Shown in pieces: positions 35,501-58,380 of a stretch of DNA of 63,801 nucleotides (the first letter of the stretch is position 1; each line of letters starts with the position of its first letter). The notes under the pieces are model-generated. The model was not told the DNA's origin and ran no database searches. It was given only the letters and a program-made list of their open reading frames with translations. Made by a program: the position numbers and the translations under genes. This DNA is from a virus (taxonomy: Duplodnaviria > Caudoviricetes), in the IMG/VR virus record IMGVR_UViG_3300032236_000737, positions 1 through 63,801 of that record; one strand, 5' to 3'.

Positions 35501-38500
35501 GCTTTATATACTTTACTCTTATAAACAACTAATGCCCCAACAGGATAGATTGCTGTTGATTGCCATGTACCGTAACTGTTTACTGGAACATAATATATAG
35601 TTTCCCAATAAGATGGATTGGTCGAAGGTACAGTTCGTACAGGAACAACAACTGCCGCTTTATAGTAAGAAATAATTCCTGAATTGTCGTCGGTAATACT
35701 TACGATTGCGCCAGGACCGTAGACTGTATTTGGATCATATTCGCCAATATAGTTAGTTACTGCATACCCGGCTTGCGAACTTCCAGTAATCATATACTGG
35801 CCGTCTGGAGAAATTGCAATACTTGATGCAATTATATTTCCAGGATTAGGGTTTGTTGTTACATTGTATGTTGTTCTAGAGTTTGTAGAAGTAGCGACCT
35901 GACTAATAGTCACGCTGACTCCAACATTAACAGATGTTACTAATGTATCTAATGGGATTCCTTGCCCGGTGATAATACCGCCCACCATGCCTGAAGATGC
36001 TCCAGCCATTGCAACTGTGTTACTACCAAGCACAGTACTAGCAGTTACCAAATAAACAGAATTTGTAGCAATGAACGGTGGTTCAATAATTTGTCTTTGT
36101 ACCCAAGGTAATGCTACGCTAGACTTATCATAGGTGGTAAGTTGGCCGAAACCAGAACCGACTGCTGCCATTGTTCCAAATCTGTTGATTGCAATTACAT
36201 TTCCAAATTCTAATCCAGCCTGCGGAGCAGAATTATTTAAATATGAGGCATTATAAACTGGGGTGTATTGCCATGTAGCCCATTTGCCGTTACCTTGATT
36301 GTCTGTCCATACCAATTCGCCTGGATTTAATCTAGTTGTAAGGATTGTATCAAGAGAATCAATGCTAGATGCACGTTGACTTACTAATGAATAAACTACC
36401 AATTGATTAGATTGAGTGAACGGGCTTGGGAATGATTTTAATGTAGCACTAACTGTGAATGTGTTTAATACCACACTAGTAACTTGATAAAATCCTTGGA
36501 TTGCAGAAACTTGAGATAGTCCTATCCAGTCTCCAACTTTTAACGAAGTTAAATTTGTAGTAGTAAGAGATAATGTATTAGTACTGCTGTTATAGGAAAC
36601 ATCGGTGATAGCAATTTGTATGTCAGTAAATCTATAAACATTCCAACTTGGTCCATCAAACGATACTGAAATGTACGCACCCTCATTGAATGTGGTAATA
36701 TCTTGATTAGTTAATTCAGACAAGTAACCTAATGAAACAAAAACATCTGACGCATTTGCATAACCAGCACTACGTAAATAAGAATTATACGTGTCTAGCA
36801 ATGGCCAAGGTTGGCTGTTGTATCCAAGTGGTTTTAGATATACATCGTTCTTTGTTTGTTGAATTATAAATGTTTCATCTAAACTAGTATCATGCAAATT
36901 TCTTAACTCAATCCCTTGTGGATTAGTTTTAAATTTTGATTCGTCTAAAATAAATTCAATATTTTCAAATGCTCGGGCGGCACCGTATTGTCCTACACGC
37001 AATGCCCATTCTTCATAGAAAGATAAACTTTCTAAATTATCAGAACTTAATACATTGAATAATTTATTCAAGACATTCTGTGTACCCTTTTCTCGGATCA
37101 TGCCTTGATAGAATTTAAATTCAGTAACATTATCTTGGATAATGTTGTCAAGATATTGACGTTTCTGATAACCAATTAGGTGATGAGACATTGTTTGCTG
37201 TCCGCTATCAAAATTATCGCTATCTAAACTGTAGAAATCTTCAAACTGACTTGCTTTGTACGACCAGTTTGGTAATAACTGAGGAGTAGGCTTGTGTGTT
37301 AGTTGGGTCCACGCTGTCGGATCAAATGTGCTTGTTCCGACTAATGCGGTTAATGCACTGTAATAAAATCCTTGATAGTTTACAATGTCACCCAACGCAT
37401 AATCTTTCCAAGATTGCCATTCTTGAATTATTGCTTGGTCAAATATAAATCCTGGAATATCTAGGCCGCCGTACCATTCAACGCTAACATGCCCTGAAAC
37501 TTTAATTCTTTCTTGTCTATATCCGCTTTCAGGATTATAAATTACATCGTTAAAAATAGTATTATTACTTAATGTAATAACTTGTTCATGTTGTATTAGA
37601 TAAAAACTTGCTCCGTAAATACCGTCAGCTGTTCGAGGGCTATACGTAACTTCGTTTCCATTTCTATAACTATCTAAAAATTGTGGAGCAAATGGTGTTC
37701 CGTCAACTTTAAATATTTCATATTCGTAAAATTGATTTTTAATATCATCTACTACTTCTAAAGTTGTTGTAAATGTTAATTTACTTGCAGATGGACTTAA
37801 ACTAATTACGCTGTTTCCAACATTACTTAGACCTTCAAGTAATGTATATTTTGTTTCATCAAATACAGATGCTGGTTGCAAATTATATAAGGCGCTATAA
37901 TAAGAACTGTTATATCTAACTATAGTTCCGTACGGTACTGGAGTATTTGGAGCCCAATCACTCCACTTGTCAGCATTAGGCGACCAGTTTTGTGTAGTCC
38001 AGAATAAAAATTCTTTAGCACTAGTTTCCCAGTTAGCAACATGTGAAAGATTTACGTTAAAGTTTTCAAATACAAATCCTTGATCTGTTAGCCAAGCGCC
38101 GTATCCAAGTAAAAAATCAACTACATCTTGTGCTGTCCTAAATTCTGTTCCGTAAGGAACTGTAATAGGTTCAGTATTGTCCCATCGTGTTCTAATTGTT
38201 GCTGTTGCTCCACCAATTACAGGTAGTCCACCTAACAAGGTAAACATATTAGTGTCAAATGTTGCTCCGGCTGTAACAGTACTTAAAGCTCGATAGTAAG
38301 ATCTGTTATAGTGAACTATGCTACTTGCAACATATAATTGTCCTGGTGTCCATTCAGTGTAGACTTCACTAACCCCGCCAACGGTGATTGTTGCACCAGA
38401 TTGTGTGTAAGGATAATACTTAAAGTATGGCTGAGTACGACTATAGCCTTTGACTTCAAATCCGTTTGGCATTTTAGTAATAATAACGCCGCTGTAAGTT

Positions 38501-52449: not shown

Positions 52450-53455
52450 TTTATTTAAAAAAGCGGCATGTTTTACAGACATACACTTTGGACTTAAATC
52501 CAATAGTAGTGTACACAACCAAGACTGTGAAGCATTTGTAGATTGGTATATTGCAAAAGCTAAGGAGGAAGGTTGTGATACTGGGATTTTTCTGGGCGAT
52601 TGGCATCACAATCGTAATAGTCTTAACATTACTACTATGGACTACTCACTTCGAGCATTGGAGAAACTTGGACAAGCATTTGATAACTTTTATTTCTTTC
52701 CTGGCAATCACGACCTTTATTATAAAGATAAACGGGATATCCACTCAGTCGAGTTTGGCAAATATATTCCCGGAGTCACAGTGGTACATGAACCGACTAC
52801 CGTTGGGAACGTTACACTCTGTCCGTGGCTTGTCGGCGACGAATGGAAGTCATTAAAAGACTCTAAAAGCAAGTATATCTTTGGGCATTTTGAACTTCCA
52901 TTGTTCTATATGAACGCTATGGTACAGATGCCAGACCATGGTGAATTACAAGCGGCTGACTTGAAAGGCCCCGAGTATGTATTCAGTGGGCACTTCCATA
53001 AACGTCAGCAACAAGGCAACGTTGTTTATATTGGAAATGCATTTCCACACAACTATGCAGACACTTGGGACGATGAGCGTGGCATGATGGTATTAGAGTG
53101 GGGTGGTAAACCTGAGTACTTTAGCTGGGACAATCAACCCACATTCCGCACACTGAAATTAAGTGAATTGATCGACGGTGCAGACGAAATCATTAAACCT
53201 AAACAGCATCTACGTGTAACTTTAGACATTGATATTACCTACGAAGAAGCTAGTTTTATTAAAGAAAAGTTCATGGCGGACTACGACATTCGCGAGCTTA
53301 CTTTAATTGCAGAAAAGAAAGAAATAGAGATTAACACTAACATTGACATCCAAGCATTTGAAAGTGTGGATCAAATTGTTAGCAGTCAAATCATTAATAT
53401 CGACAGTGATACTTACGACAAAAACACACTGTTGAGCATTTATAATAGCCTATGA
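52442..53455 (+). CDS. gp47: recombination endonuclease subunit (Mre11/SbcD-like)
   Basis: Metallophosphoesterase motifs DIHFG, LGDWHH, GNHD, GHFE and SGHFH. Confidence 0.9.
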   Translation: MSNLFKKAACFTDIHFGLKSNSSVHNQDCEAFVDWYIAKAKEEGCDTGIFLGDWHHNRNSLNITTMDYSLRALEKLGQAFDNFYFFPGNHDLYYKDKRDIHSVEFGKYIPGVTVVHEPTTVGNVTLCPWLVGDEWKSLKDSKSKYIFGHFELPLFYMNAMVQMPDHGELQAADLKGPEYVFSGHFHKRQQQGNVVYIGNAFPHNYADTWDDERGMMVLEWGGKPEYFSWDNQPTFRTLKLSELIDGADEIIKPKQHLRVTLDIDITYEEASFIKEKFMADYDIRELTLIAEKKEIEINTNIDIQAFESVDQIVSSQIINIDSDTYDKNTLLSIYNSL

Positions 53456-55230
53456 TAAAATTAAAAGAACTTACCGTTAAGAATTTCATGAGTGTGGGCA
53501 ACCAGACTCAAGCTGTAAATTTTGCCCAGCAAAACTTAACTTTAGTCTTGGGAGAAAACTTAGACCAAGGTGGAGATGACAGCGGAAGTCGTAACGGAAC
53601 AGGTAAAACTACCATTGTAAATGCCTTGAGTTATGCGTTGTTTGGTAATGCTTTAACTAACATTAAAAAAGATAATCTTATCAACAAAATTAACAACAAG
53701 GGTATGTTAGTCACGCTTGCGTTTGAAAAAGATGGTACAGATTATCGCATTGAACGTGGTAGAAAACCCAATGTTTTACAGTTTTTTGTCAACGACCAAG
53801 AACAAGAAACAGCTGAAACAGATGATGCACAAGGTGACGTCAGAGAGACACAAAAAGACTTAGATGACTTGCTGGGCATGAGCCATGATATGTTCAAGCA
53901 CGTGGTTGCTTTGAACACTTATACCGAGCCTTTCTTGAGTATGCGGGCTAATGATCAGCGGGTAATCATTGAACAATTACTAGGTATTACATTGCTATCT
54001 GAGAAAGCAGAAACTCTAAAAGAAATGATTAGATTGACCAAAGATCAAATCACACAAGAGTCTGCTAATATCGAAGCAACTAAGAAAAGTAACGAAAAAA
54101 TACAGTCTAGCATTGAAGGATTGTTCACAAGACAAAAGGCTTGGAATAATCAGCATACCCAAGAAGTTGAAAAAATTGCCCGTGCTATTGTAGAATTAGA
54201 AAGCGTAGATATCGAAGCTGAGCTTGCGAAGCACACGGAGCTGAAAGCGTATTTAGACAAATCAGCGAAGCTGAAAAGCCTAGAAAAGGAACGTGCTACT
54301 TTAGATAGCGCGATAGCGCAAGCGGAGCGAAGCGTCACGAAGTATGATCGCGAGCTCGGCTTATTGGCAAATAAGACTTGTCATGCCTGTGAGCAAGAAT
54401 TACACGATCATAAGCATGAAGAAATGACTGCTGTCGCACAAACACACCTCGATGAGGCCAGAAAATATCACGATAAGGTCCAACAAGATTCTGCAAAAAT
54501 TCAAGCAGAAATTCTAGCTCTTGGCGAAATCAATGGGCGACCTAACACATATTATGACACAGTGGAAGAGGCCTTTAAACATCAAAATAACTTAAAAACT
54601 CTGGAAAATCAGCTGACTATTAAAGCTGGTGAGACAGATCCTTACCAAGAGCAAATTGACGAATTGACCGATACTGCACTACAAGAAATCACTTGGGACA
54701 AGGTCAATCAACTTAATACTATCAAGGATCATCAGGAGTTTTTGCTTAAATTGCTAACGTCAAAAGACAGCTTTATACGTAAAAAGATCATAGATCAAAA
54801 CCTAGCGTACTTGAACAATCGTCTAACTTATTATCTTGACAAAATGGGCTTGCCGCATACTGTCTTGTTTAAGAATGACTTGACTGTGGAAATTACACAG
54901 CTAGGGCAAGACTTAGATTTTGACAATTTAAGTCGAGGAGAACGTAATCGTTTAATCTTGTCGCTGTCGTGGGCATTCCGCGATGTGTGGGAAAGTTTGT
55001 ATCATCCTATCAACTTGTTGTTTGTGGACGAGCTAATTGACAACGGCTTGGATGCGGCTGGAGTCGAGGGCGCACTGGCAGTATTAAAGAAAATGTCGCG
55101 TGAACGCAAGAAGAATATTTTCCTTATTTCACACAAGGACGAACTAATCGGACGTGTGAACAATGTACTTAAAGTTGTTAAGGAAAACGGCTTCACGTCG
55201 TATGCTAACGACTTGGAAATCAATGAGTAA
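53452..55230 (+). CDS. gp46: recombination ATPase subunit (Rad50/SbcC-like)
   Basis: KNFMSVGN, Walker A NGTGKTT, Zn-hook CHAC, LSRGE signature, FVDE and ISH motifs. Confidence 0.92.
   Translation: MIKLKELTVKNFMSVGNQTQAVNFAQQNLTLVLGENLDQGGDDSGSRNGTGKTTIVNALSYALFGNALTNIKKDNLINKINNKGMLVTLAFEKDGTDYRIERGRKPNVLQFFVNDQEQETAETDDAQGDVRETQKDLDDLLGMSHDMFKHVVALNTYTEPFLSMRANDQRVIIEQLLGITLLSEKAETLKEMIRLTKDQITQESANIEATKKSNEKIQSSIEGLFTRQKAWNNQHTQEVEKIARAIVELESVDIEAELAKHTELKAYLDKSAKLKSLEKERATLDSAIAQAERSVTKYDRELGLLANKTCHACEQELHDHKHEEMTAVAQTHLDEARKYHDKVQQDSAKIQAEILALGEINGRPNTYYDTVEEAFKHQNNLKTLENQLTIKAGETDPYQEQIDELTDTALQEITWDKVNQLNTIKDHQEFLLKLLTSKDSFIRKKIIDQNLAYLNNRLTYYLDKMGLPHTVLFKNDLTVEITQLGQDLDFDNLSRGERNRLILSLSWAFRDVWESLYHPINLLFVDELIDNGLDAAGVEGALAVLKKMSRERKKNIFLISHKDELIGRVNNVLKVVKENGFTSYANDLEINE
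54225..54343 (+). repeat. cluster of GC-GNA-GC / GC-GNNA-GC mini-hairpins inside gp46
   Basis: TGCGAAGCA at 54225, TCAGCGAAGCTGA at 54262, GCGCGATAGCGC at 54308, GCGGAGC at 54322, GCGAAGC at 54327, ACGAAGT at 54337. Confidence 0.55.
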
Positions 55231-55501
55231 ACACGTTGAGCCAAGTCCATACCAAAATGAAGAGTCGCATGAACGACTCATGGCGGCGTTTAAAGAATAT
55301 TTTAAGGCTAATCAAGATTGGCAGGCAAAAGGCACACGTAGGGCAGGCGAAAATATGCGCTATTGGTTGGCGCAAATAAGAATTATAGCAAAGGATCGTA
55401 GGGCACACGTACAGCAATATCGTGTGTGGCTGGACAAGGACAAGGCAGCTCGTAAGGCAAACCAAAAAGGCTCATCGGAGGACTCGGCAGACACTAATTA
55501 G
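55223..55501 (+). CDS. small basic helical protein, histone-H1-like Hc1 family-like
   Basis: KGTRRAGENMRYWLAQIRIIAKDRRAHVQ pattern; start MSKHVE at 55223. Confidence 0.5.
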   Translation: MSKHVEPSPYQNEESHERLMAAFKEYFKANQDWQAKGTRRAGENMRYWLAQIRIIAKDRRAHVQQYRVWLDKDKAARKANQKGSSEDSADTN

Positions 55502-55504
55502 TGT

Positions 55505-55930
55505 ATGTCTTGGTACTACGAAAATCAAATTGTTGAAGAACTTCCGGAAGATTGTGTTGGGTTTGTATACATTATAACAAACACATTATCCGGGCGTATG
55601 TACATAGGCAAAAAACTAGCAAAATTTTCTAAGACTACCTATAAAGTAGTCAAATTAAAAAACGGCACAAAGAAGAAAAAGAAAATCCGTGGTAAGATTG
55701 ACAGCGATTGGCGCACCTATTATGGTAGTAGCCCAGAGCTTACAAAAGATATCACGCAGTTAGGTCAAGAAAACTTTCGCAGGGAAATACTATTTTACTG
55801 TAAATCCAAGGCAGAAACGTCATATATAGAGGCTCGTGAACAATTCAGCCGTCGTGTGCTGGAATCAAATGACTATTATAACGGTCATATTCAAGTGCGT
55901 GTACACGGTTCACATATACTCAAATCATAA
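55505..55930 (+). CDS. stand-alone GIY-YIG nuclease
   Basis: GFVYIITN...MYIGKK, YYGSS, catalytic-type E (YIEAREQ) and YYN; Lys-rich insertion; no appended DNA-binding domain. Confidence 0.85.
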   Translation: MSWYYENQIVEELPEDCVGFVYIITNTLSGRMYIGKKLAKFSKTTYKVVKLKNGTKKKKKIRGKIDSDWRTYYGSSPELTKDITQLGQENFRREILFYCKSKAETSYIEAREQFSRRVLESNDYYNGHIQVRVHGSHILKS

Positions 55931-55934
55931 TAAT

Positions 55935-56415
55935 TTAGGCTCGTTACATCACCAAATAAGCCCGCACTGGCGTTGATATAGTGTCCGTAATCCGTTCTGA
56001 TGTGTGACGGTAAGGTAGTTCTGCTTGGTGACAGAGTTATAAATCACTATCCTTAACAGGACGCGGATGAGATATGCCATAACTCATTTGATTTATAAGG
56101 AGTAATCGCTGGCTAAAAGAGGGGTAGTGGCCCCACGTTTACAAATATGTTAGCGTATATTTGTAAGCCGCCGTCATATAAAGACAGCATGAGCAGGTAC
56201 CGGATGACCGCCTGTGTTTTAGTGCTAACGCTAAGTGATATTGTTCGACTCAGATAATGTCCAAAAAATACTTTGCCCTGCCTGGGCAAAGTGTGACTGA
56301 ACGATCTAGATAATATCTTTAACGCTTCGCGTTTAATTAACTACTAACTACTCTTTAATAGAACTTGAATAGTTCGAGCGAAAGCGATGAACAGAAGAAC
56401 GCAAGTTCTTCTTTA
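55935..56415 (+). ncRNA. putative large structured non-coding RNA of unknown class
   Basis: ORF-free 500-nt gap with at least 10 helices, a long-range helix (56001-56010/56171-56180), a pseudoknot (56150-56155/56229-56234), G-U pairs favouring the + strand, and a terminal GCAA-loop hairpin. Confidence 0.65.
56393..56414 (+). terminator. terminator-like GNRA hairpin closing the structured region
   Basis: AGAAGAAC-GCAA-GTTCTTCT followed by a short T run. Confidence 0.45.
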
Positions 56416-56435
56416 AAGTAACGATAAATATCTTT

Positions 56436-57335
56436 ATGAAACTTCACGAATTACTTGATAATGACTCCTTACGAACTAATGAAGGACTAGCATCTTGGTT
56501 AGTTAAAACAGGTGCTAAGATGGGAGGCAAAGCTGCCGTTAAAGCTGGACTTAAAGGGTCTGCTCCTGCTGCCGAGAAAGTGGCTACAAAAGTTGCAAAG
56601 TCTGGTGTAGTAGACAAAGGATTTAAAGCCATATTTAAAGTAGGCGAAATCGTCAAGTGGCTGGTAAGCATTGGATTTGGTTATAGTGTAGCCAAACCAG
56701 TTTATGACTACTATACAAATGTTAGCAAAGCTGAAGACAACTACAAAGCAGGTGCTACTAGCCAAGAAGAATATCAATATATCCGTCAGCAACTGATGGG
56801 TCTTATGTTGACCAAGATTGCTGTCTTATTAGAAGGTGCGGCATTTTTAGGATCTATTGGTCTAGTTGCTAAAATCTTGGGCATTTTTAAATTTATTCCG
56901 GGAGTTGGATTAATTTTAAGAACAGTCTTGGCTATGGATACTGCGGCCGCTGCCGCATTCTTAGTAGCACTTAACAGTGAGTTTGGTCGCAAGTGGATTA
57001 CTAAAATTGCTTTCTTCCATCTAAGTGAAATTTTCCCTAGTTTGAAAGGCAGTCAATGGGATTTAGATATTGCAGATGTACTAGGTGCTGGCGGTGTTTG
57101 GATTACAGACGAATTTAAAAAGTTAATTGGTAAAGAAGATCCGGCAGATGCTCCTATTCAAGGAAATACTCCTGCTCAACAAGCTGGAAGAACTCCAGAC
57201 GACAAAGCTACTGATACTGCTCAAAAACAACATGCTGACCAGCAGACTAAAGACACAGATGAATGGGAACAAATTGCCCCAGGACGTGAGCAAAATAAAC
57301 GTACGGGTGTTATCCGTATGAATGACAAATATTAA
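56436..57335 (+). CDS. hypothetical late protein with hydrophobic helices (possible internal/ejected virion protein)
   Basis: TAAATA 5 nt before the ATG; MKLHELL...NEG N-terminus; several TM-like segments. Confidence 0.65.
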   Translation: MKLHELLDNDSLRTNEGLASWLVKTGAKMGGKAAVKAGLKGSAPAAEKVATKVAKSGVVDKGFKAIFKVGEIVKWLVSIGFGYSVAKPVYDYYTNVSKAEDNYKAGATSQEEYQYIRQQLMGLMLTKIAVLLEGAAFLGSIGLVAKILGIFKFIPGVGLILRTVLAMDTAAAAAFLVALNSEFGRKWITKIAFFHLSEIFPSLKGSQWDLDIADVLGAGGVWITDEFKKLIGKEDPADAPIQGNTPAQQAGRTPDDKATDTAQKQHADQQTKDTDEWEQIAPGREQNKRTGVIRMNDKY

Positions 57336-57571
57336 ATCAACGGCATTCCGCTGTTTTTAGTATTTTCAAAGTTGTCATTAACTATTTCATAAAAGATTGC
57401 ACGATCTTCGTGTGAGTAACGATCTAATAAATCGTTAACTGTAACGCCGCCTCGCATGTACCAACTGATTCTGTACAACTCTAATTTAAAATCTTTTACG
57501 TATTTTTCAAGCCTAATCAAGTCTTCTTGAATTTCCTGGGCGGATAGTCCGATTAGGCTTGTCCGAAAAAA
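57332..57571 (-). CDS. gp51-like hub assembly domain, probably translated as a -1 frameshift extension of the upstream gene
   Basis: Frame is open from the TTTTTTC slippery site; only a TTG start with no good SD; WYMRGG...EDRAIFYEIV motif. Confidence 0.6.
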   Translation of the reverse strand, partial: FFRTSLIGLSAQEIQEDLIRLEKYVKDFKLELYRISWYMRGGVTVNDLLDRYSHEDRAIFYEIVNDNFENTKNSGMPLI

Positions 57572-58380
57572 CTTGTTTGATCCATAGTTATAGTAAGTTC
57601 GTCTTTACCTTGACACTCATCACATTCTATAGGGAATGTAGGAATCATCCAAGCATCGCGATTCTTTTCAAACTGTTCTTTAATGCGAGCAAATATTTCT
57701 CTATCGCAATTTTCCAACCATTCATTGATATAAGCACGTTCAGTTACATTTACTTTATCAGTTTGTACACTATCAATGCTTAGACTGTACAGCTCATTTT
57801 GCATACGACCCAAATCGTCAAACAATGAATTTAGAATCTTTTGTTGCTCTTCTTCGTTTTCAATACGATTAGCTTGTGATAATTTTTGTTGTAATTGAAA
57901 GTTCTTTAACCCAAACTCGTTGCTTTGTGAATAAGTCAACGGTTTCATATTGATTACTAAATCGTCTAATACTAGTTTGTTATTAAAGTGAGCAGTAGTA
58001 AAGTGTTCAATCAAACGATTTAAATCGACATTATATTCTCCAAGATTTCCGCAATGGGGGCAAGTTTTTTCCACGCCCATGTCTGCACCAAATGTAGCAA
58101 TACGTATAGCTGTGAACATTAAGTCAGTGTCCAGAACACTTAACTCTGCGGCATTCTTAATACTAGGACAGCAACTTTCGATAACACGAATATTGCTTTC
58201 ACCGGTTAGTAATGCATCTGGAGTCTTCATGATAATTTCATCCATGCCAGTCATACCGTATACTGGAATGCTATTAACGTCTCCTTGTATAGTTCCTGGC
58301 TTGCTGTAGACGCCTTGACTAGGTAGTTTTACAAAGATTTTAGGTTGTCTAAAGTGTTGTGCTAATGGATTATTTGCCAT
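57553..58380 (-). CDS. gp26: baseplate hub assembly chaperone (T4 gp26-like)
   Basis: LPSQG, MTGMDE, D..F.AIRIA..G, CPHC and CDEC Zn motifs, C-terminal SFF. Confidence 0.75.
   Translation of the reverse strand: MANNPLAQHFRQPKIFVKLPSQGVYSKPGTIQGDVNSIPVYGMTGMDEIIMKTPDALLTGESNIRVIESCCPSIKNAAELSVLDTDLMFTAIRIATFGADMGVEKTCPHCGNLGEYNVDLNRLIEHFTTAHFNNKLVLDDLVINMKPLTYSQSNEFGLKNFQLQQKLSQANRIENEEEQQKILNSLFDDLGRMQNELYSLSIDSVQTDKVNVTERAYINEWLENCDREIFARIKEQFEKNRDAWMIPTFPIECDECQGKDELTITMDQTSFFGQA

Follow-up and report, generated by a model that had tools for sequence, protein, structure and literature searches.

A large, doubly pseudoknotted phage RNA with two modules that change in concert has the orphan motif Polynucleobacter-1 as its 5′ third

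GOLLD and ROOL are associated with phages and prophages. Both are presented as large and heavily structured orphan RNAs in a 2024 preprint (bioRxiv 10.1101/2024.12.08.627333). HEARO, the omega-RNA that goes with IscB, is catalogued as RF02033 (Rfam 15 paper), and the motif Polynucleobacter-1 (RF01718) was catalogued in 2010, in a table that marks it as a probable cis-regulator and gives its range as Burkholderiales, in fresh water or estuary (Weinberg et al. 2010, PMC2864571). A literature search on the name Polynucleobacter-1 returned no paper besides that one. Here we analyze IMG/VR record IMGVR_UViG_3300032236_000737, positions 1 to 63,801 (hereafter the window, a 63.8-kb fragment of a T4-like phage record, estimated to be about 17% complete), and in it a structured RNA of about 458 nt, at 55955-56412 on the + strand, which comes right after the gene for a small GIY-YIG nuclease. 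This phage RNA is the full-length form of the orphan motif Polynucleobacter-1.

A conserved RNA in the only gene-free stretch

The match to RF01718 covers 55959-56098 (+) with 74.4 bits against a cut-off of 37, it spans the model at full length (1-141), and it is the sole Rfam family above its cut-off in the whole window. A first-pass annotation of this DNA, made from its letters alone, could not match the stretch to tRNA, tmRNA, RNase P, hammerhead or an intact group I/II intron, and had asked for an Rfam search. The absence of a match stands for tRNA, tmRNA, ribozyme and intron families (neither ARAGORN nor Rfam reports a tRNA or tmRNA in the window), and for all that lies beyond 56098, where no family exceeds its cut-off, but not for the 5′ third. 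RF01718 also scores 63-120 bits in nine out of 11 diverse relatives. A search for Polynucleobacter-1 in bacterial genomes by pattern gave five matches, and 0/5 are RF01718.

The RNA lies within 55931-56435, the window's sole run of at least 200 nt without an open reading frame (ORF) of at least 60 aa on either strand. As had been noticed from the letters, this run opens at the stop codon of the GIY-YIG gene. IMG/VR holds at least 583 close relatives of the nuclease, and behind the best 80 of them (72-96% identity) the noncoding stretch is conserved at 67-82% in 71. Among the nine misses, two have almost no downstream sequence, and three (L045, L071, L072) were later shown to have the core motif. 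Counting the nuclease loci with enough downstream sequence, 70 out of 74 carry that motif; the exceptions are a lineage (L057-59) with a divergent noncoding stretch, and one locus (L063) without the motif within 1 kb.

A 17-mer taken from the most conserved block of the RNA (the core 17-mer) matches at least 119 viral stretches. The RNA occurs exactly once in each of five long records, including a 345-kb genome estimated to be 99% complete. A blastn search of the region against 50,697 cultured-phage records gave no match. The first-pass annotation had offered, as one of its readings, an independent large structured RNA. The conservation and covariation of about 458 nt, across a set of more than 100 phage contigs, support this reading.

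Evidence for a conserved structure

Does this RNA have a conserved structure, and on which strand? The minimum free energy of the + strand is -139 kcal/mol, with z = -2.74; the - strand, with z = -3.69, folds equally well, so that single-sequence folding alone decides nothing. We used two sets of homologs. Alignment A1 includes 59 of the 67 distinct stretches found downstream of the nuclease; it omits two with an inserted gene or an offset (L013, L022), one near-duplicate (L038, of L037), and five without a blastn match at that stage (L045, L057, L063, L071, L072). The larger set adds what the core 17-mer fetched, 80 further loci, without the nuclease being consulted. Chance matches in unrelated GC-rich coding DNA (L116, L124, L148) were removed first, and all loci, old and new, with 250 nt on each side of the core resulted in 140 sequences, 120 of them distinct.

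On A1, RNAalifold predicts 65 pairs, 43 of them with compensatory change. The structure scored on A1 has 19 helices with 93 pairs in all; of its 5377 cells, 87.7% are paired, compared with 72.0% in shuffled alignments (0/500 reach the observed value) and 36-45% when the structure is slid along the alignment. The covariation score is 0.453, versus 0.171 for shuffled and 0.07-0.09 for slid alignments, and double changes are observed in 76 of the 93 pairs (845 cells vs. 243 shuffled). Mutual information with average-product correction, calculated on the 120 distinct sequences, recovers the same helices and both pseudoknots. The covariation check on homologs that had been proposed for this region comes out in favor of a structure: covariation backs sixteen nested helices and two pseudoknots. 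Since the 3′ domain covaries as well (helices 15-19), the RNA extends from about 55955 to 56412. As for the strand, the alignment has 402 G-U cells versus 151 A-C cells, which favors the + strand, the one already chosen from G-U pairs in the window alone.

Architecture of the RNA

From the pattern of covariation, the RNA has three domains: a 5′ three-way junction domain, a rigid double-pseudoknot core, and a 3′ hairpin domain. The elements are as follows, where R1 and R2 are the two repeat modules, P9 is the hairpin that sits between the repeats, and PK1 and PK2 are the pseudoknots.

55959-56098 (+): domain A (Polynucleobacter-1), from covariation (helices 1, 3-7) and mutual information
55964-68/55980-84, 55992-95/56007-10, 56020-23/56032-35: helices of domain A
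56040-45/56090-95, 56051-52/56059-60 (plus the pair 56047-56063), 56066-71/56083-88: three-way junction of domain A
56111-56234 (+): domain B, the doubly pseudoknotted core, from covariation of helices 8-13; contains the near-invariant GGUACCGGAUGACCGCC
56121-24/56131-34, 56139-48/56157-66, 56187-90/56222-25, 56193-97/56211-15: helices of domain B
56150-56/56228-34: PK1
56173-77 (GUCAU)/56204-08 (AUGAC): PK2, with the loop of the conserved GGUACCGGAUGACCGCC hairpin
56232-56261 (+): R1, first direct-repeat module, AAGUG..N A CUC RNAURAW R; 56235-56261 in a narrower delimitation
56271-56291 (+): hairpin P9, CUUUGCCC/GGGCAAAG, with a GNNA-type loop in most relatives
56288-56317 (+): R2, second direct-repeat module, AAGUG..N A UCU RNAURAW R; 56291-56317 in a narrower delimitation
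56321-56412 (+): domain C, from covariation (helices 15-19) and mutual information (56374-56390, 56375-56389, 56396-56409)
56323-25/56329-31: hairpin of domain C, followed by a variable linker at about 56334-70
56372-75/56389-92: helix of domain C enclosing 56378-79/56384-85, with a GAAA loop
56393-400/56405-12: terminal hairpin of domain C, with a GCAA loop; 8/8 pairs covary

In the RF01718 domain, helices 1 and 3-7 are kept by compensatory change (for instance 26-45, AU 40/GC 19; 119-181, UA 38/CG 20; and 148-173, GC 29/CG 22), and helix 2 is poorly aligned between subfamilies (52.8% paired). One non-canonical covariation occurs in the junction, where positions 56050/56062 are U-C in 92 sequences and C-U in 25, and never form a standard pair. 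This pattern suggests a conserved tertiary or non-Watson-Crick contact.

In the core, PK1 covaries in 7/7 pairs, with 97.8% of cells paired (56153-56231 is GC in 98 and AU in 18). PK2 has double switches, CG 37/UA 22 and AU 31/GC 20 in A1, and for 56175-56206, CG 57/UA 62 in the 120 sequences. The inner CGG/CCG stem is invariant, and its C56208 is also used by PK2. The P9 pair 56274-56288 is UA in 68 sequences, AU in 12 and CG in 10; the hairpin as a whole (helix 14) is only 65.5% paired in A1 because the columns are partly out of register. A UGUUC/GAAC helix around P9 (76% paired, few double changes) was rejected.

Most of the helices that the first-pass annotation had read off the single sequence survive. 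Covariation supports TCTG/CAGA, the three-way junction (GATGAG/CTCATT and its closing helix), GGGG/CCCC, AGCAT/GTGCT, GCAGG/CCTGT, the CTTTGCCC/GGGCAAAG stem of the CUUUGCCC hairpin, the terminal GCAA hairpin, and the pairing of a hairpin loop with CGCTAA, which is PK1. The hairpin at 56139-56166 covaries in 10/10 pairs, and has 10 bp. The long-range helix proposed for 56001-10/56171-80 does not hold up; its pairing is 51% and 75.7%, with many broken cells, and 56173-77 pairs with 56204-08 instead.

Three loci depart from this architecture. In L084 (8267-8800, +), the RNA is missing exactly the PK1 3′ strand, R1 and P9, that is, one repeat unit, and the remainder is kept; PK1 cannot form there. 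This variant could be a real deletion or an assembly collapse. In L160 (reverse strand), about 300 nt before the core motif, the 5′ half of domain A is deleted together with the last codons of the nuclease, so the GIY-YIG ORF reads into the RNA. And in L156 the conserved hairpin CAGGUACCGGACAACCGCCUG stands alone, with the rest of the RNA absent and unrelated phage sequence around it; this hairpin may be a portable motif.

Two modules that change together

R1 and R2 are 29-nt direct repeats, 56 nt apart, and identical at 20/29 positions in the window. Each module begins on the 3′ strand of a helix, and a hairpin comes after it. We found no supported pairing for R1 or R2. After the fixed CUC (R1) or UCU (R2), there is a word that differs between phages, and that is identical within one phage (114 distinct rows). 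The words are AGAUAAU, GGAUAAU, GCAUAAU, GGAUGAU, GGAUGAA, AGAUGAA, GAAUGAU, and AGAUGAG, and one locus has AGAUAAUC in both modules. The variable sites take few states, about 15 haplotypes, and the hypervariable guide-like segment that had been suggested as something to look for is not what we see here. By mutual information, these same-same couplings between R1 and R2 rank among the best Watson-Crick pairs:

56252/56308: AA 56, GG 61; 2 exceptions
56256/56312: AA 86, GG 32; 1 exception
56258/56314: identical in 119/119 rows; 0 exceptions

Positions 56247/56303 and 56246/56302 are coupled too.

Could the agreement reflect common descent alone? A FastTree tree of 118 RNAs (with the R1/R2 span excluded, and L156 and L084 dropped) requires at least 26 changes at 56252 and at least 27 at 56308. 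Phylogenetically independent pairs differ in the same direction in 13/13 (p = 0.00024), 8/8 (p = 0.0078), 5/5, and 3/3 cases for four column pairs, and control columns on the same tree have no association.

Plain gene conversion between the modules is unlikely, since the positions at which R1 and R2 differ lie among the co-changing ones. Nearly all of the 114 distinct rows keep the difference between CUC in R1 and UCU in R2; only L156 and L084 do not. (The row for L158 reads differently just before R2.) An antiparallel R1:R2 helix from RNAalifold was rejected: none of its pairs has a compensatory change, each being either invariant or altered in just one partner, and the GCAU types break it. 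By mutual information, R1/R2 co-vary with no third column of the RNA. The word as a genome-wide motif or promoter was also discarded, with only R1 and R2 above chance in the window. The causes that remain are a bivalent reader encoded elsewhere, like-with-like strand contacts, or a constraint at the level of the DNA.

The neighboring nuclease

The protein encoded just upstream has 141 aa, and residues 3-129 match the Pfam family PF19835 (SegE_GIY-YIG) over its whole profile (1-123/123; 2.4e-33, 115.4 bits vs. a cut-off of 25). This agrees with the earlier description of a catalytic domain alone. The protein also belongs to phrog_447 (2.1e-37). An AlphaFold 2 model from 19 sequences, with a predicted local distance difference test score of 83.4, has the GIY-YIG sheet and helices, and a long beta-hairpin that carries a Lys-rich loop. 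The nearest solved folds are those of the I-TevI catalytic domain (1LN0 and 1MK0, probability 0.92-0.97), a weak match given E-values of 0.14-0.26. Sequence and profile searches of solved structures returned nothing significant, and a likeness to T4 endonuclease II, also considered, is absent from both the profile search of solved structures and the fold search. PADLOC reports weak homing-endonuclease models and nothing else.

To measure how closely RNA and nuclease go together, we took the 80 loci collected by the RNA word. Removing three chance matches, one isolated hairpin (L156) and five loci with short upstream sequence leaves 71 informative ones. A GIY-YIG gene (54-100% identity) is directly upstream of the RNA in 66/71, and the RNA starts 22-30 nt past its stop codon, even at 54% nuclease identity. 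In four of the 71, an unrelated gene of 257-308 aa stands between nuclease and RNA. In the remaining one (L138), gp47, gp46 and the small ORF are followed by the gene for a 188-aa PDDEXK_15 nuclease (5.6e-30) which replaces the GIY-YIG gene, with RF01718 at 63 bits right behind this PD-(D/E)XK gene.

The linkage is looser from the nuclease side. The nuclease family is present in 494 cultured-phage records, most of them from T4-like cyanophages and none reaching 60% identity; by blastn, the RNA is in none of these records. In Methylophilales phage Melnitz, the homolog (50% identity) is behind ribonucleotide reductase genes and is followed by small ORFs. In cyanophage Bellamy, the single cyanophage context covered, it comes after nrdA-nrdB (ribonucleotide reductase) and before a tRNA array; the slot behind nrdA-nrdB is presumably the denA position in T4. 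The Bellamy homolog (Synechococcus phage Bellamy, NC_047838.1 151779-158156), just before an array of seven tRNAs, is labelled 'NAD synthetase', apparently a mislabelled GIY-YIG protein.

The first-pass annotation had drawn an analogy to HEARO and IscB, in which the RNA binds or directs the nuclease. RNA and nuclease are separable in both directions, which makes an RNA-guided nuclease unlikely; the analogy loses further ground with the four inserted genes and with the nuclease columns, none of which co-varies with R1/R2 (the best has a mutual information of 0.12, compared to an entropy of 0.69). A shared position at the end of the gp47-gp46 block explains the synteny at least as well. The linkage it had asked about exists for the RNA, in 66 of 71 loci with five exceptions, but not for the nuclease family in cultured phages. 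Taken as a whole, what it observed is partly confirmed, and how it interpreted this is partly supported.

The locus

The locus is at the end of the gp47-gp46 gene block, on the border of the replication/recombination and baseplate modules. The genes and signals around the RNA are these:

53452-55230: gp46/SbcC-like gene (PF13476; phrog_77 at 7e-104)
55223-55501 (+): small Arg-rich ORF of 92 aa between gp46 and the nuclease, listed as a context gene, with no membership in the RNA system implied
55505-55930 (+): GIY-YIG nuclease gene of 141 aa, catalytic domain alone with a Lys-rich beta-hairpin insert
56423-56438 (+): ATAAATA word and start codon of the variable downstream gene, outside the RNA
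56436-57335: ORF of 299 aa with no family match, directly after the gene-free stretch
57553-58380 (-): gp26-type baseplate-hub gene, convergent, beyond the 299-aa ORF

The 92-aa ORF has no family in Pfam or PHROG, where it gives a single weak, sub-threshold Tat-like match; it is kept in most relatives at 32-91% identity, and also in L138, where the nuclease is replaced. It ends 3 nt before the nuclease start. There is no split gene around, and the ORF layout confirms the earlier statement that no flanking gene is interrupted.

Downstream of the RNA the genes are not homologous across relatives. In about 12 relatives the downstream gene is missing and the convergent gp26-like gene comes next. 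That the downstream gene is variable or absent argues against a 5′ leader. The ATAAATA word, which we take to resemble a T4 late promoter, is kept in the alignment of relatives where a + strand gene follows, and is replaced where the gp26-like gene comes next. No sigma-70 promoter or intrinsic terminator was called for the RNA on the + strand, the terminal hairpin included. The GC skew has no extremum at the locus; its cumulative minimum is at about 50 kb, where gene direction switches. This is a weak test. Elsewhere in the window, a minus-strand open frame of 5369 aa, a giant phage gene, includes 37030-37275, and homologs of this giant ORF are found 19-22 kb from the RNA in two long relatives.

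A resemblance to cow-rumen-2

The second-best Rfam match, in a 1.2-kb search, is RF02947 (cow-rumen-2) at 56137-56234, with 22.6 bits and an E-value of 0.17. The gathering score of 66 bits is far from reached, either here or in five relatives (11.5-20.6 bits), and 11 loci searched with E-values up to 10 gave no match to RF02947, so we do not assign the RNA to that family. Yet in 5/5 long relatives, the best sub-threshold RF02947 match of the record falls in domain B and on the strand of the RNA. Weak RF02947 matches are also found in 6/14 control genomes, and what counts is the location; the five long records are related to each other.

The consensus pattern of cow-rumen-2 matches 64 viral stretches. 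All 11 that were tested are true members (11/11, 90-108 bits), and they are phage-borne. By nhmmer, the shared core is about 60 nt long; the cow-rumen-2 loci in that comparison were picked by a pattern that shares two of its blocks. Neither pseudoknot is traceable in cow-rumen-2 RNAs, an apparent resemblance in the 3′ flank faded on inspection, and a scan for Polynucleobacter-1 upstream of five cow-rumen-2 RNAs (six loci) gave no match. On these sequence likenesses, the phage RNA and cow-rumen-2 are probably distant relatives that make separate families.

Some features of cow-rumen-2 itself emerged along the way. In the rumen jumbo phage contigs (L206-L269) it is often multi-copy, with up to four copies in a 416-kb record. 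What is conserved extends beyond the 106-nt motif by about 170 nt on the upstream side and about 150 nt on the downstream side, and includes a promoter-like site, TTTACA-17-TATATT. One copy is just upstream of a T4_baseplate (gp26-like) gene, another is beside uvsY, and no linkage of the copies to tRNAs was found.

What the RNA may do

Our preferred explanation, which we hold with moderate confidence, is that this is a stand-alone, single-copy noncoding RNA of about 458 nt in giant freshwater T4-like phages, and that it acts in trans as a scaffold or decoy, with twin sites for a two-fold partner. No + strand promoter of its own was called, so the RNA would most likely be made as the 3′ end of an early or middle transcript of gp47, gp46 and the nuclease gene, ending at the 56393-56412 hairpin. 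The two pseudoknots would lock the core, and R1 and R2 would be displayed between the core and the 3′ domain. The twin sites would be presented in trans to one two-fold partner encoded elsewhere, and would have to stay identical to each other. A protein dimer could be that partner, as could a protein or nucleic acid present in two copies. The nuclease would be a syntenic neighbor and not the partner.

Several points weigh against this explanation. The partner has left no trace where we looked: neither the nuclease (n = 100) nor the 92-aa protein (n = 51) has a column that tracks R1/R2, there is no third copy or complement at a fixed place within loci of 1-15 kb, and no occurrence of the word in the 64-kb window exceeds chance beyond R1 and R2 themselves. 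A co-varying third copy in the giant ORF (YLDNI codons, in two long relatives) fails in the window, whose homolog uses other codons, and the idea was rejected. The concerted change could also come from direct homo-pairing of both strands or from DNA-level constraints. The tight synteny (66/71), together with the swap for another nuclease fold, could mean a functional module of nuclease and RNA. And the - strand reading of A1 is only moderately worse, with 83.0% canonical cells vs. 87.7% on the + strand.

How do other explanations fare? The RNA could be a guide, activator or inhibitor of the neighboring nuclease, with the nuclease fold interchangeable, and R1/R2 as specificity segments. The spacing of 22-30 nt in 66/71 loci fits this, as do the PDDEXK_15 nuclease found in the same slot in the one clean exception, a nuclease without a DNA-recognition domain, and modules that differ between phages within fixed flanks. 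It has to face the 494 cultured-phage records with the nuclease and none with the RNA, the Bellamy and Melnitz homologs that follow ribonucleotide reductase genes and have tRNAs or small ORFs behind, the unrelated gene that intervenes in four loci, the lack of any nuclease residue that co-varies with R1/R2, and some 15 haplotypes, which is not a guide-like repertoire. We consider it quite unlikely, and the idea of an RNA-guided 141-aa GIY-YIG nuclease, tempting as it is, is now poorly supported. A bolder form has R1 and R2 as duplicate programmable specificity segments on a knotted scaffold, which read a two-fold nucleic-acid target with an interchangeable nuclease as effector. If true, this would be a still undescribed type of system, in which RNA directs a minimal nuclease, with phage, host or competitor DNA or RNA as targets; we regard it as very unlikely. 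A cis-acting element is another candidate: a 3′-UTR (untranslated region) stabilizer or terminator of the gp47-gp46-nuclease operon, an antiterminator, or a 5′ leader that controls the downstream gene. The RNA shares its strand with the upstream genes and has no called promoter immediately before it, most relatives have the late-promoter-like ATAAATA and a start codon after the terminal hairpin, and the motif's label in the table of Weinberg et al. (2010, PMC2864571) is that of a probable cis-regulator. But about 460 nt with two pseudoknots and near-invariant loops exceed what a stabilizer or terminator needs, no intrinsic terminator was called at the terminal hairpin, the downstream gene is non-homologous across relatives and absent in about 12, and the RNA is kept in relatives with an inserted gene. 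A cis role is therefore unlikely in our view.

The agreement between R1 and R2 has a precedent at the level of DNA, where direct repeats that are kept identical are typical of protein-bound repeats. The element could then be an origin, with a transcript that primes or opens the DNA (an R-loop origin) and R1/R2 as iteron-like sites for an initiator or recombinase. Inter-repeat recombination would yield a variant such as L084, which is missing exactly one repeat unit; the locus is at the border of the replication/recombination and baseplate modules, and copies of cow-rumen-2 occur beside a gp26-like gene and uvsY. DNA repeats, however, need neither compensatory changes that keep RNA helices nor tolerance of G-U pairs; there are two repeats only, and the GC-skew minimum is at about 50 kb and not at 56 kb, weak as that test is. 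An origin has a small probability in our judgment, about that of the nuclease partner. Finally, the size, the pseudoknotted core and the near-invariant unpaired nucleotides would suit a ribozyme or an RNA that processes itself. R1 and R2 would then be equivalent processing sites, and a single active site would need to accommodate both. Rfam gives no ribozyme or intron family with E-values up to 10, the flanking genes are intact, R1/R2 have no co-varying internal guide, and we take this to be highly improbable.

Concerted evolution of two segments without supported pairing is unusual, and it is testable; it indicates that something reads both sites alike, and identifying the reader of R1/R2 should reveal the function.

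Comparison with known systems

Some systems resemble this locus in one respect only. As in HEARO/omega-RNA with IscB, a structured RNA adjoins a nuclease gene, but here RF02033 gives no match, a RuvC/HNH protein and a hypervariable guide end are both lacking, the RNA follows the gene on its 3′ side, and each of the two is found without the other. A group I intron with a GIY-YIG homing endonuclease was rejected, with no intron family at E-values up to 10 and no split gene. Type III toxin-antitoxin systems such as ToxIN have tandem near-identical repeats upstream of an endoribonuclease toxin gene. This possibility was rejected as well, since here two imperfect 29-nt modules are downstream of a DNase-type gene. 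With I-TevI and the T4 Seg-type endonucleases, the phage protein shares the Pfam family SegE_GIY-YIG and the 1LN0/1MK0 fold; it differs from them in having no DNA-binding domain after the catalytic domain, and from sporadic homing genes in being conserved at 72-96% in its 80 best relatives.

With GOLLD and ROOL, the phage RNA has in common that it is large, heavily structured and orphan. It has no Rfam match to either, and by that criterion is not a member; we know of no concerted twin modules in GOLLD or ROOL. Cow-rumen-2 and domain B agree in three successive elements: a UUAGC-loop hairpin, then GCCGCC, then another hairpin, which contains GGAUGACC. Cow-rumen-2 is multi-copy and has its own promoter-like site, whereas the phage RNA is single-copy with no promoter called. 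As a probable distant relative of the core, cow-rumen-2 points to a wider class of large phage RNAs.

The closest known system is Polynucleobacter-1, with the same hairpins and three-way junction as the window at 55959-56098. The catalogued motif has 141 nt, and its label in the 2010 table is that of a probable cis-regulator; the phage RNA has about 458 nt and is kept even without a downstream gene. Unlike the catalogued motif, it has two pseudoknots, twin repeat modules and a site behind a nuclease gene. An orphan motif thus becomes the 5′ third of a large, doubly pseudoknotted phage RNA.

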